DNA of 63,879 bases, counting the filler, from Stramenopiles sp. TOSAG23-2 (lineage: Eukaryota): assembly GCA_900128395.1 (NCBI GenBank). It is 3 parts of 3 records of this genome, joined end to end, with 100 filler letters (N's around TTAATTAATTAA, not from the genome) between each part and the next. Parts side by side here need not be neighbours in the genome. Positions count along the whole stretch, not along the records: positions 23,394 to 46,624 come from LT649492.1; 2 more parts are not named here. One strand, written 5' to 3'. A program made the position numbers and the translations under genes. Positions 9,039 through 31,147 of this stretch are shown here, in pieces; position 1 is the stretch's first letter; each line of letters opens with the position of its first letter. The notes under the pieces were generated by a model that was given only the letters and a program-made list of their open reading frames with translations, did no database searches and was not told the origin of the DNA.

Positions 9039-9501
9039 TAATAATGTACAAATATAAAATAAATATATCTTAATATATACATACGATGTTCGTAAATTTT
9101 AACCACATATGATGTATATAAAAAATTCTCTTATTCATAATTTAAAGATTTTATTTACTCATAAATATATATAATATTATAATATAATATCATATGTAAA
9201 CACTAAAAACGATGGATACTTATAATAATATGTCAAAAGCAATTTCATAAAATGGAAAAGATAATGCCACCATGTCCTCATGCAATTCCTTATATTGATT
9301 TCCGTCTTTAAAAAATCCCGTTATGCCCCGGTCATCATCATGGGAGTTCTCCATTCGAGTGTCGGTTTTTGTATTTGTTTTTGATTTAACCGTGTGACCA
9401 ATAGAGTCATTCCTGATGTGTTCCGTGTCATGATGTATATATATATTATCATTAATCCATACGTACATTTTAATACATATGTGTGTGTTTCTCTGTTCTT
9501 T

Positions 9502-27036: not shown

Positions 27037-27579
27037 TTACGACATTGGCACTACTTGTGCATTGCTTGTGGGCTGTTGAACAAATATCACAGTAGGGTCG
27101 TTAGGATCAACAAATGCACCATTTGCAATTCCATTATTTGTGACTTCTTGTGCAAATCTTCTACTATCTTGTCTACCACGTTCCATTGACATGAAAAATA
27201 TAGGTAAAAAGGTTCCACAACCACCGTTGTTAAAATTAAATTTAAACTTGAAATCAGAGGTTGAACCAACGACAACAGGAGAGCATTTACCACTTAAATT
27301 ATTAGCACCAAATATAGGCTGATTAAATTTTTCTTCTGTAATGTTTGTTATAGGTAACCGGAAAGAGACGAACTGGAGACCACGTTGCGTTGTAATTTTC
27401 TTAGCAACAAAAAATATTGAATGAGAAGTAAGAAATAAAGTGCCATTTCCACTAAATTTACCAGTTTCCTTTGCTTCTACTGAGAAGCTAATTCCAGCAC
27501 GTGACAATAAGAACACTTCGTTTGCATCCTCCGGTGTGACTGGGATGCCATTTGACGCGACAGTTGGGTTAAATGCCAT
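27037..27579 (-). CDS. WBP2: WBP2-like GRAM/PH-domain protein
   Basis: GTLFLTS, FNQPIFGANNLSG, FNNGGCGTFLPIF and AFVDPNDPTVIFVQQP. Confidence 0.85.
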   Translation of the reverse strand: MAFNPTVASNGIPVTPEDANEVFLLSRAGISFSVEAKETGKFSGNGTLFLTSHSIFFVAKKITTQRGLQFVSFRLPITNITEEKFNQPIFGANNLSGKCSPVVVGSTSDFKFKFNFNNGGCGTFLPIFFMSMERGRQDSRRFAQEVTNNGIANGAFVDPNDPTVIFVQQPTSNAQVVPMS

Positions 27580-27630
27580 TGCGTTGATGTTTTACTTCTT
27601 CTTCTTTCGTAATCTCAATTTTCATATGTG

Positions 27631-27662
<32 letters not shown>

Positions 27663-28667
27663 AATAAAATAAATGTTAAATGTTGTGCATGCAACTAACA
27701 ACTAAAAACTAAAAAAAATATTATTGGAAAGAGAAAATTAAATTTCCTAAAAAAAACCGACTCTTTTTAAGGAAATTGACTCGGTAGTTTTCCATTAATT
27801 AAGCCAAATATTTTAGTACCTGTACTATTTGAACAGCCATGGTAATTTACTTTATTTTATGATAAATAAATATTAAGTATATTAATTTAAATATTATAAT
27901 AAATATGTTTTTTGTTTTTATAAATATTTATTATATATATCATATGTATGTATAATATACGTAACAAATGTGATTCCGATGTATTAATTAATATATGATA
28001 TGAACATACTATTGTGTCATTTTAGTCATTAGAAAAACAGATTAAAAGTTTTATAAACATTTTAAACTACAAGTAATAATAGTTCATAATGTAAGAAAGT
28101 TTTATCCTATATAAAAACTTCTATCCACAAATTCTTATTTCTAATCTTTTTTTCGTTGTTGGTGGTTTTTACATGAAACTACGCACCTACATGACACTAT
28201 TTTAACATTATGGCGACAAATGCCAACCACACATTAGTGCATTAGACATCTGCAACATCTCAGGGATCCCATTTATGCAATTAAAGATTACGCGTCAATA
28301 GATTTTTCCTACCTCATATTTTACTTTTAAATTTAACGGTATTGCCGTACTAGTATCATACTTAAAAAAATTTATAAAATAAAATCTTTAATTTATAAAT
28401 ACCTTGTCAGTACATAAGACGGAAATAAGTGCCTCGAAAAAGTGGGCAGTGGTTGGGATAGGAGTAGGGTTTAATTTAAGTACTACATTAGTGTACTAAT
28501 ATATGCATATTTGATAGTGAGTTACTGGTATTGCAAAAATCGGATATTCTTAGTAAATTCATCAAAAGAAGTATTGGCTATTTTTGGATTTTTTGCATTA
28601 CCAGTACAAAATATTTCTCTATTAAAAAACACCAAACTGGCAAACAAACTACAGTAAAATCCATTAA

Positions 28668-29222
28668 AAACTACTACTACTAAAAACTTTCTTACAAGAG
28701 AGCTTTGTCGAGAGCGGGAAGAATACTTCGGAAACCTTGACGGTCAAGTCCTGGGAGCTGGCAGACCTGCTGTGGCAACGCTGCGGGCCTTGCATTCCTC
28801 CGGAGCTGAGGGAGCAGGGGGCTACGGCACTTGTCCCTGGAACTTACCAAGCGCAGTGCATTGTCCCAGTGTTTCGCTTCATGCGCTACAGTGCAGGGCA
28901 GGGCTTTCGGCCTCACCACGACCCAACACGGCTGCTGCGCCGCCATCCCCGAACGCAAGAGAGTGGTACGTATCGTACTCTGGTGACCATTGCACTATAC
29001 CTGAACTCAGGCAACGAGATGGACGGCGGCGCTCTCAGCTTCTTGCGCGCTGCAACGGGGACGAACGGGCGTAAAGGGTTCGAATCCATCGCCAGCGTTG
29101 AGCCGGCCGCCGGACGGGCTGTCATCTTCCCCCACAATCAACTCCACGAGGGCGGCGAGCTGGCGGGTGGCGTGAAGCACATGTGCCAATGCGACGTGCT
29201 GTACAGGCGGGTCGGGGACTAA
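28668..29222 (+). pseudogene. GC-rich 2OG-Fe(II) oxygenase (P4Hc-like) fragment lacking a 5' ATG
   Basis: FRFMRYSAGQGFRPHHD (HxD), TIALYLN, GGALSF, GRAVIFPHNQLHEG (distal His) and GVKH...DVLY. The frame is open back to a TAA at 28665-28667 with no ATG before the domain. Confidence 0.75.
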
Positions 29223-29539
29223 TATATATATTTAGATATATAAAAATTACGAACGTATATTATATTACCAGGTACATATATATATATATTACGACGAGTA
29301 TCTTTATTAAATAATCCAGACCCTTTTGTTTTATTTTTATTTTTATGATATCTTTTTTGATGTGCATGTTTTTTATAATTAAATTTACGCATAATTTATT
29401 TTTAATTTACTCATGATAATTTATAATATATCAAGAGACATCTGTATGTTTTGTATGATATGTGTGTATTTGTAATAAATATTCAGTTATACAATAACCG
29501 ACATACCATATTTCCTTCTTTTTTATCTTTTTAATTATT

Positions 29540-30319
29540 TTACAATAATATTTCAGTGGAAAAACTTGAAGGGATATCAGGAAATGCAGTTGCGCCAATA
29601 CTAATACTGCTGCTACTACTGCCACTATTAATATTATTTTTTTTATCATTTATTCTCTTTCGTTTCTCTAATTTACGTTTAACTATTGGACTTGCAGAGT
29701 TTAATGCGGTAGCCAACATGTTTAAACCATCTTTTTCTACATTATTATTATTATTATCAATGCGATTTGCATTTCGTTTCCTTTTTTTTTTTCCTTTTTT
29801 ACTACCAGTTGGAGGAGTTGTTCTATCATCAGATTTATTTTTTTCATTATGTGGATCAGCTATAGTTATGGTTACTTCTTTTCCTCGATAATCTCTTGGA
29901 TAAAAATTTACATCTCGTTTACAAGTGCGTTTATGCCTAGATAAACCGGATACATGGGCATACGCGCGTTTACAATATGGACATTTATGTTTCTTTATAA
30001 GTGGTTGCCCTCTACATTTATGTTTAATAAAGTTGCATTGCCATCGAAATACTTTTGCACATTGTGTACATTCCCATCTTTTGTTTTCATGGACATTTTG
30101 TGTATGTGCTCTTACCATTTCTCTTGATGAAAATGTTTTGCTACAAATCTCACAGGCAAATTTTCTTCCTTGATGCACATTTAAATAGTGCCTTTTTGCA
30201 TCACTTTTTTGCGAAAATGTTTTATTACAACCAGGATGTTGGCAAACGGCTCGTTCAACTTGACGTCCACTTATAGGATCTAACATTGTAGTCAACATAA
30301 TTGACGTTTTTTTTGGCAT
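29540..30319 (-). CDS. C2H2 zinc-finger transcription factor (about 4 fingers)
   Basis: CQHPGC..F....H..H, CEIC..H..H, CTQC..HKC and CPYC..HKRTC; basic NLS; GLNMLATA motif. First ATG at 30319. Confidence 0.9.
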   Translation of the reverse strand: MPKKTSIMLTTMLDPISGRQVERAVCQHPGCNKTFSQKSDAKRHYLNVHQGRKFACEICSKTFSSREMVRAHTQNVHENKRWECTQCAKVFRWQCNFIKHKCRGQPLIKKHKCPYCKRAYAHVSGLSRHKRTCKRDVNFYPRDYRGKEVTITIADPHNEKNKSDDRTTPPTGSKKGKKKRKRNANRIDNNNNNVEKDGLNMLATALNSASPIVKRKLEKRKRINDKKNNINSGSSSSSISIGATAFPDIPSSFSTEILL

Positions 30320-31147
30320 GATAATACTAACCAATATATAGTATTTTGATGAAGACTAAGAAAATCACAAAATCACCAATAATAAAAGATTAATAATATA
30401 TATAAACTGTTTGGGGGTGTTGATGAGATGGCACGGAAAATGGTATGGTTATGATGGAGGGCGAAAGCAGCAAGAAGAAACTATACAAATTTCTTTTTTG
30501 TATCCACTTGATCTCACATACACACATATAACGCGCACACGCACACACACACTGATCTCTATTCACACATTCTACTTTTGCTTCTATATTTTTTCATAAA
30601 TGAATTCAATAATCCTCCCACTGACCACACCACAATAATCATAAAATACACAGAGTGCACCATGCTATTCACATGCTAAATAGTAATAGTTGGCAAAGTG
30701 AAAAGGGAAGCGAGACGTATCAAAACCAGTGAGAACGTAAAACTGGTTATTCGCAACCTTTTTCCAGCTTTCTTTAATAGCTTTGCACCCCTCTATTGCA
30801 CTTTTCCTGGATTTTCCTTAATCCTTTTTCCTAAATCCTTAATATATTCTGTAAAAGTGATAGGAATATGTCGATTAGTGTACTATAAGTGTACCAACAG
30901 TAGGTAGGATCGACGTCTCCTCGTTTGTAGAACAACCAAAATTATAGAAAATACAAGAGAGATGTGTGTGTGTGTAAGTGTGCATCTGTTTGAAGAAGGC
31001 AAAGAAACGCAAGATATGGAAAAAACAAGGAGAGAAGTAATAGTATAAGAAGAAGAAGAAGAAGACAAAACTATATATACGGAGAGATTAACTCTGTCTC
31101 TCACACATACGCATACGTATATATGTATATATATAGAGAGAGCTCAA

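Follow-up and report, generated by a model that had tools for sequence, protein, structure and literature searches.

Phagotrophic protists are said to acquire genes from the organisms they ingest, and Doolittle reportedly described this prey-to-predator gene transfer in 1998 as a 'you are what you eat' ratchet. A different route is known from NUMT and NUPT insertions, in which stray organelle DNA is caught at double-strand breaks through end-joining. For uncultured marine protists, a report on single-cell genomes of Paulinella ovalis-like cells describes prey DNA as well as two cyanobacterial HGTs (PMC3322482). Here we describe a short GC-rich island in the DNA of an AT-rich marine protist, which is probably a very recent foreign gene fragment that was really inserted into the chromosome, was dead on arrival and is already decaying.

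The window, i.e. the whole 63.9-kb stretch of DNA that was analysed, is AT-rich (32.5% GC), and its ORFs are long and mostly unbroken and encode asparagine-rich proteins. The island (28693–29222, plus strand, 530 bp) has a GC content of 61.1%, while the remaining 530-bp windows average 32.3% (SD 3.7, maximum 42.3%), so that the island lies ~7.7 SD away from them. Followed in 20-bp steps, GC rises from 0.25 to 0.60 at 28700 on the left edge and drops from 0.70 to 0.05 at 29220 on the right edge. The GC content at codon positions 1, 2 and 3 is 0.64, 0.49 and 0.71, respectively (GC3 70.5%), compared with a GC3 of 0.14–0.30 across 13 long native ORFs in the window. The preliminary description of this DNA had estimated an island of ~520 bp with 60–65% GC and a codon usage unlike that of the other genes, and had suggested sliding-window GC and codon usage as a check; the estimates hold, and in this check the island alone stands out, with none of the 13 native ORFs above a GC3 of 0.30. 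The start that it had placed at 28690 is corrected to 28693, where two independent environmental contigs begin their donor-type match.

On the basis of GC content, a PF13640 domain, homologues and contigs from two marine runs (X4 and X15), this foreign island comprises the 3' 176 codons and the stop codon of a P4H-type 2OG-Fe(II) oxygenase gene, corresponding to residues ~131–306 of a family of ~300 aa. In an ORF scan, it belongs to a stop-to-stop open frame of 184 codons (28668–29222, plus strand), the initial eight codons of which are AT-rich, host-derived sequence. A TAA at 28665–28667 precedes this frame, and its terminal stop is a TAA at 29220–29222 with an adjoining (TA)n run. By simple arithmetic, the chance for a random frame of equal length and 61% GC to remain open is about 0.4%. 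The earliest in-frame ATG occurs at 28881. The longest ATG-initiated ORF, identified by ORF scan and family alignment (28881–29222, plus strand, 113 aa), retains the HHD, the distal H and the K of the family and, judging from a structural model of low confidence, would be without those strands and helices that form the N-terminal part of the fold.

The 184-codon frame matches the Pfam family 2OG-FeII_Oxy_3 (PF13640) over its residues 70–169, with 46.4 bits (cut-off 27) and an E value of 8e-12. The Fe(II) facial triad HxD...H is present, with HHD in RPHHDP and the distal H in QLHEGG, and a K in GVKHM occupies a conserved column 10 residues past the distal H. In a family alignment of 20 sequences, conservation reaches at least 90% in each of these columns, and the window copy has every one of the residues. 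In collagen-type P4Hs, the C5 carboxylate of 2OG is bound by a Lys that follows the distal His at a distance of about 10 residues, and we presume the K of GVKHM to be the residue with this role. An intact frame with intact metal ligands and a 3' boundary at the stop codon had already been noted from the sequence by eye, and the same is true of the truncated 5' end; the open 184 codons, the conserved columns, the TAA with its (TA)n run and the lack of any in-frame ATG before 28881 agree with that reading, as does the absence from the window of the N-terminal ~130 residues of the family.

The extent of the truncation is apparent from the homologues. A search of a large protein collection gave 292 candidates, and a threshold of E ≤ 0.001 left 19 homologues, 14 of which (P0001–P0014) are full length (296–308 aa) and share 73–84% amino acid identity with the window frame, aligning to it only from their residue ~123–133. 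P0019 (310 aa) also has the N-terminal region, with a long N-terminal extension, and aligns from residue 256. The N-terminal parts of these 15 homologues have no match anywhere in the 63.9 kb by tblastn, and with all 19 homologues as queries every tblastn match outside the island has an E value of at least 0.008. Of a gene of ~300 codons, the window therefore contains just the final 176. The island is a gene fragment, 5'-truncated with about 58% of the coding sequence through the stop codon, and not a member enzyme of the family; the start codon and the N-terminal strand–helix elements of a complete, translatable gene are missing.

Beyond the close family, sequence and structure searches lead to a broad class of enzymes. 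In a profile search over 1.84 billion representatives, 20 clusters passed E ≤ 1e-30 and 1937 passed E ≤ 0.001, and the matches outside the close family correspond to the generic oxygenase domain, from position ~132–142 to the end. By sequence profile, PDB gave 0 matches, and the ESM Atlas gave generic 2OG-oxygenase clusters from bacteria and viruses only, which do not indicate the donor. The family of the island has its own helical N-terminal extension of ~65 residues. Full-length P0001 was modelled with AlphaFold at low confidence (mean pLDDT 57); the best Foldseek matches of this model are prolyl 4-hydroxylases, among them 5iat and 2jig (E 2e-5 to 6e-4), which may point to the P4H class and serve as a lead only. 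Chlamydomonas P4H-1 (PDB 2jig, 3gze) and the Bacillus anthracis P4H (5iat, 3itq) share with the island the PF13640 domain and the HxD...H...K motif, with an identity of only about 14–16% in comparisons that use this low-confidence model. Unlike these enzymes, the window copy is without residues 1–130 of its family.

Other incomplete sequences occur among the relatives. P0018, a 128-residue ORF of the oxygenase family on a 42,021-base contig (ENA), begins mid-gene and differs from its close relative P0009 by a stretch that resembles a double frameshift (SAQAAARGRRAK vs PHKQLHEGGELR in relatives); it could represent a second decayed family copy, carried by a long contig as a pseudogene or as a further piece of captured DNA. 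P0020 and P0021 (67 aa; P0021 on a 5,340-base NCBI contig) equal the island product from an ATG at 29019, with K for T as the sole difference. Such an ORF is expected from a frame broken slightly upstream, comparable to the TA insertion at 28995 in run X3 (see below), and these two proteins may derive from additional host-type alleles. In addition, P0019, P0025 and P0027 run from the N-terminus and diverge directly past PPELRE, while P0016, P0017, P0022 and P0024 begin at MALVPGTY, just past the same point. This divergence at PPELxE may reflect an intron in certain family members; the island and three metagenome contigs with the full-length gene (L001–L003) are uninterrupted across the PPELRE/MALVPGTY site.

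These three JGI metagenome contigs (1.9–3.3 kb) each carry the gene as a single unbroken ORF and are informative about the donor group. They have 60–62% GC along their entire length, flanks included, and the flanks contain microsatellites and low-complexity runs and not dense bacterial-type coding. The GC3 of their ORFs is 0.68–0.76, a range with which the 0.71 of the island agrees, and their nucleotide identity to the island is 81% (L001), 76% (L003) and 76% (L002). Further, one protein in the 90% cluster of P0001 is an 'mmetsp' transcript, from the transcriptome of a cultured marine eukaryote. Searches with two short peptide patterns, which provide weak evidence of absence, gave 38 matches in IMG/VR viral contigs and 183 in prokaryote genome contigs, with 0 relatives in either set. 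Together, a GC-rich marine eukaryote lineage is indicated as the donor group. Prey, a virus or cDNA had initially been named as possible sources. A eukaryote source gains from the GC-rich relatives and a viral one loses from the 0 relatives in viral contigs, while cDNA and DNA origins are inseparable because the relatives are intronless in DNA; naming prey as the donor is guesswork. Between the island and L001–L003, dN/dS is 0.10–0.12 at a dS of 0.9–1.4, which suggests that the sequence evolved in a functional gene until shortly before its capture. On the GC-rich marine contig L002, a 376-codon open frame with no Pfam match also lies upstream of the oxygenase gene (positions 3–1133 of that contig).

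Donor-type sequence is also found in seawater at much closer identity. In X4, a marine metagenome, a 270-letter contig matches 28693–28928 without interruption, with one difference in 236 letters, and continues upstream with 34 letters that are not in the window. In X15, a poly(A) metatranscriptome, a 186-letter contig matches 28693–28760 with one difference in 68 letters and has 118 non-window letters upstream, and a 201-letter contig matches 28764–28964 with 0 differences in 201. The 30 letters of X15 directly upstream of 28693 translate in frame to AYRLRRELG-I, the family-conserved sequence immediately before the breakpoint of the window copy. Because these contigs continue into N-terminal coding sequence, a full-length expressed gene about 99–100% identical to the island exists in seawater, and because the matches in both X4 and X15 begin at 28693, the break is placed between 28692 and 28693.

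Whether the island is physically linked to host DNA was evaluated with Logan contigs of public sequencing runs, not with raw reads. Twenty of the 23 listed runs (14 studies) hold part of 27900–30000, and three hold at least half of the sampled words; four runs (X2, X3, X4 and X15) were examined over the locus. The best holders of the window, X1 and X2, are very small runs from one study, and X2 is a second cell whose study and organism label are those of the probable window source, of which it is not independent. Uncovered parts (28681–28893 in X3, the joining contig aside; both junctions in X4; the host flanks in X15) carry no weight. In X2, a 612-letter contig at a depth of 6.4 covers 28538–29149 and a 200-letter contig at a depth of 4.4 covers 29183–29382, each with 0 differences and compared with a depth of 7.2–7.5 in the flanks. 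Both junctions are thus bridged in X2, the 5' junction in this run only. X3 represents a different strain from another study, with 4 substitutions in 1677 aligned bases and several microsatellite indels. Its 2094-letter contig covers 28920–29341 with 0 substitutions at a depth of 75.7 (flanking contigs 68–77) and extends across the 3' junction, reaching 303 letters into the island and 119 into the flank. In this contig, a TA inserted behind 28995 causes a frameshift, and ~1534 non-window letters replace 28673–28919; near its end, this ~1.5-kb replacement contains a 23-letter match to the high-copy repeat at 29378–29400. A transposon insertion with a deletion is our guess for its origin.

These contigs bear on the possibility, also raised in the preliminary description, that contaminating or ingested GC-rich DNA was stitched into the sequence by an MDA chimera or by the assembler. 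X1 and X2 are indeed very small runs from one study and of a chimera-prone data type, and a near-identical free sequence occurs in seawater. However, an artefact requires two chimeric junctions in the same orientation, X2 assembles both junctions independently at the depths given above, the 3' junction recurs at single-copy depth (about 75×) in another strain and study, and the junctions have no long identical words in common that could mislead an assembler. Two chimeric junctions of the same orientation that also recur in a second strain from another study are not credible as an artefact, which we regard as highly improbable, and the island is real chromosomal DNA. Four joints (27949>29272, 28385>29375, 28561>29741 and 28672>29378) were considered as empty-site alleles and rejected, as their sides of 20–23 letters are probably repeat matches; no clean empty-site allele was seen in the contigs of the examined runs.

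Comparison of the host copies with the seawater forms indicates how the fragment has changed since its capture. Position 28734 is G in the X4 and X15 contigs and A in the window, which converts a family-conserved A residue into T. At 29062, an A>C change replaces K with T in both the window and X3, while K is found in a second X4 contig, P0015 and P0020–P0022. Both derived changes of the window copy are non-synonymous, and the host-side changes appear, as expected, to fit evolution without selection. One of 269 bases separates the island from the X15 form, and 4 of 1677 flank bases distinguish the two host strains, a similar divergence that suggests a capture about as old as the strain split; the same 3' junction in both strains implies that the capture predates this split. 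The GC3 of the island reveals no amelioration. The initial view of a very recent, unameliorated foreign capture thus stands, with a GC3 like that of the relatives, near-identical donor-type contigs and bridged junctions.

The surroundings of the island are rich in repeats. Directly upstream, a dispersed repeat (28414–28609, unstranded) looks like a miniature inverted-repeat (MITE-like) element, given its inverted repeat, hairpin and contig depth. The arms (28523–28539 and 28590–28606) are 17 nt long and 94% complementary with 50 nt between them, and the hairpin has an energy of −13 kcal/mol (z = −3.7); the imperfect ~20-bp inverted repeat recorded at 28523–28606 in the earlier reading is therefore present. 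In X3, the element reaches 3–4 times the base level in summed contig depth, and in X2 and X4 the excess is far greater; many of the contigs that match it are partial, at 90–95% identity. One X3 contig links 28521 to 28592 on opposite strands. Within the window, blastn finds no other copy of the flanking repeats, and the inverted-repeat arm has only look-alikes with three mismatches. On the 3' side, the flank (29223–29291, unstranded) is AT-rich by its sequence, with (TA)n microsatellites adjoining the stop codon, and its length differs between strains, with ATATAT inserted behind 29288 in X3. The native neighbours are both on the minus strand: upstream, a 184-codon ORF with a weak GRAM-domain match (27037–27591, GC3 0.28), which has its 5' end toward the island, and downstream, a C2H2 zinc-finger protein gene (29540–30355, GC3 0.18), which has its 3' end toward the island. 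Rfam and tRNA scans of 27.0–30.5 kb gave no hits.

A second dispersed repeat (29320–29461) includes 40 bases (29382–29421) with very high summed depth in all four runs, namely 32,114 in X2 (~7 nearby), 2,500 in X3 (~70 nearby), 7,979 in X4 and 73 in the RNA of X15. The stretch lies about 120–160 bases past the stop of the minus-strand zinc-finger gene and has loose ends on both sides, and in X15 a 1231-letter RNA contig ends 8 letters away from it. Its sole weak look-alike in the window is at 9136–9177 (79% identity). A short element in high copy number, or a motif common to transcript ends, would fit this pattern.

Such repeats on both sides of the island (28414–28609 and 29320–29461), together with its near-identity to the expressed full-length forms, might suggest an origin within the protist itself, from its own gene, a resident mobile element or a virus. 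The island would then be an internal duplicate or a transposon-captured piece, and the protist itself would carry the seawater form, at a different locus or episomally. We consider this unlikely. All 13 native genes in the window have a GC3 of at most 0.30. Where the DNA of a relative is known, the whole contig is GC-rich. X15 contains island-like RNA, but the host flanks and the neighbouring gene are uncovered there save for short repeat matches. In X3, where the host is at ~75×, the sole contig that crosses the locus has other letters over 28673–28919. The 0 relatives among the pattern matches in viral contigs and the lack of terminal repeats at the island also argue against a virus or mobile element.

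According to the reading we prefer, the source would be a P4H-type 2OG-Fe(II) oxygenase gene of a GC-rich marine eukaryote that was prey, host or close associate of the AT-rich marine protist. A fragment of this gene may have entered as naked DNA and been joined by end-joining into a double-strand break in the repeat-rich 1.9-kb spacer between the two minus-strand genes. End-joining is suggested solely by what is missing around the island, where no poly(A) tail, target-site duplication or terminal repeats were found; a 3' UTR-like GC-rich tail is likewise not present there. Lacking a start codon, any evidence of a promoter and the N-terminal third of the fold, the fragment would have been non-functional on arrival. 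It would now be decaying neutrally, and its residence time may be about equal to the separation of the two sampled strains.

Expression through an upstream exon had also been proposed. This is not borne out: there is no upstream ORF with an ATG, no RNA contig joining host flank to island was seen in X15, and the X3 copy is frameshifted. The AAG/GAG at the 5' boundary is donor coding sequence and, by reading, a poor splice acceptor. Nothing suggests that the host uses the fragment, and a functional or nascent gene is very unlikely.

A captured catalytic module that is becoming a host gene would have its 176-codon frame under selection, and would start from an upstream exon, a non-ATG codon or the ATG at 28881. 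In its favour, no stop interrupts the frame and every catalytic residue is present. The fragment ends at the natural stop, with its 3' end 0–3 bases from the stop codon, and its 5' end is close to the generic 2OG-domain start (~132–142); both placements together are improbable for a random fragment (roughly 0.1%) and hint at selection or another mechanism. A natural short form may also exist, as the 182-aa homologue P0042 has an M ~10 residues before the equivalent point. Against this, the frame has no ATG before 28881 and no ATG-containing ORF upstream, its boundary is a poor splice acceptor with no host–island RNA contig seen, and the strand–helix elements before residue 131 are missing, as judged from the low-confidence model. 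Further, the X3 strain has a frameshifted copy that has lost its 5' part, and the two derived changes of the window copy are both non-synonymous. We therefore find it quite improbable that a module is becoming a host gene. A related scenario, in which the module was cut almost exactly from domain start to stop, remains open in one strain and is lost in another, and the spacer serves as a landing pad that tries out foreign DNA, is similarly doubtful on present evidence. If it were true, the acquisition of a domain by one eukaryote from another would be visible in progress at the population level.

For the preferred reading of a decaying foreign fragment, the significance lies in its early stage. 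Claims of gene transfer among eukaryotes mostly depend on old genes whose composition has already ameliorated, and contamination is a frequent objection to them; the present locus exposes the starting material itself. The case represents the first, mostly futile step of the gene-transfer ratchet, with the source gene still expressed at sea and two decay states of the insert. It suggests that the rate of influx is measurable, from the number of GC-rich islands in a genome and their ages as estimated from strain divergence. It also illustrates that chimera formation need not be the cause when an abrupt GC island appears in a single-cell assembly.

The locus resembles each of several described systems in part. 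LINE-mediated processed pseudogenes are likewise 5'-truncated and intronless with an intact coding 3' end; unlike them, the island has (TA)n and not poly(A) past the stop codon, no 3' UTR and no target-site duplication. Its lack of introns is uninformative about a retrocopy origin because the relatives are intronless in DNA. With NUMT and NUPT insertions it shares the character of a short, non-functional, intergenic fragment of alien composition without poly(A), target-site duplication or terminal repeats, but their source is the organism's own organelle and that of the island would be another organism's nuclear gene. The Paulinella ovalis-like case is similar in that foreign DNA is found in the nuclear DNA of an uncultured marine protist from data of the single-cell type, and in that the source organism co-occurs in the water (PMC3322482). 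It involves a cyanobacterial source and a working gene, whereas the island probably has a eukaryote donor and is a headless fragment; unlike in that case, donor-type sequence is still about 99–100% identical and the structure of the insert differs between two strains. The composition of the island separates it from the host (GC 61% vs 32%; GC3 0.71 vs 0.14–0.30) and places it with its relatives (GC3 0.68–0.76), and contigs link it to host DNA at the 3' junction in the independent run X3 and at both junctions in X2, from the probable-source study. The island is a further example of a known event, the horizontal acquisition of DNA by a protist, for which the evidence is unusually direct.
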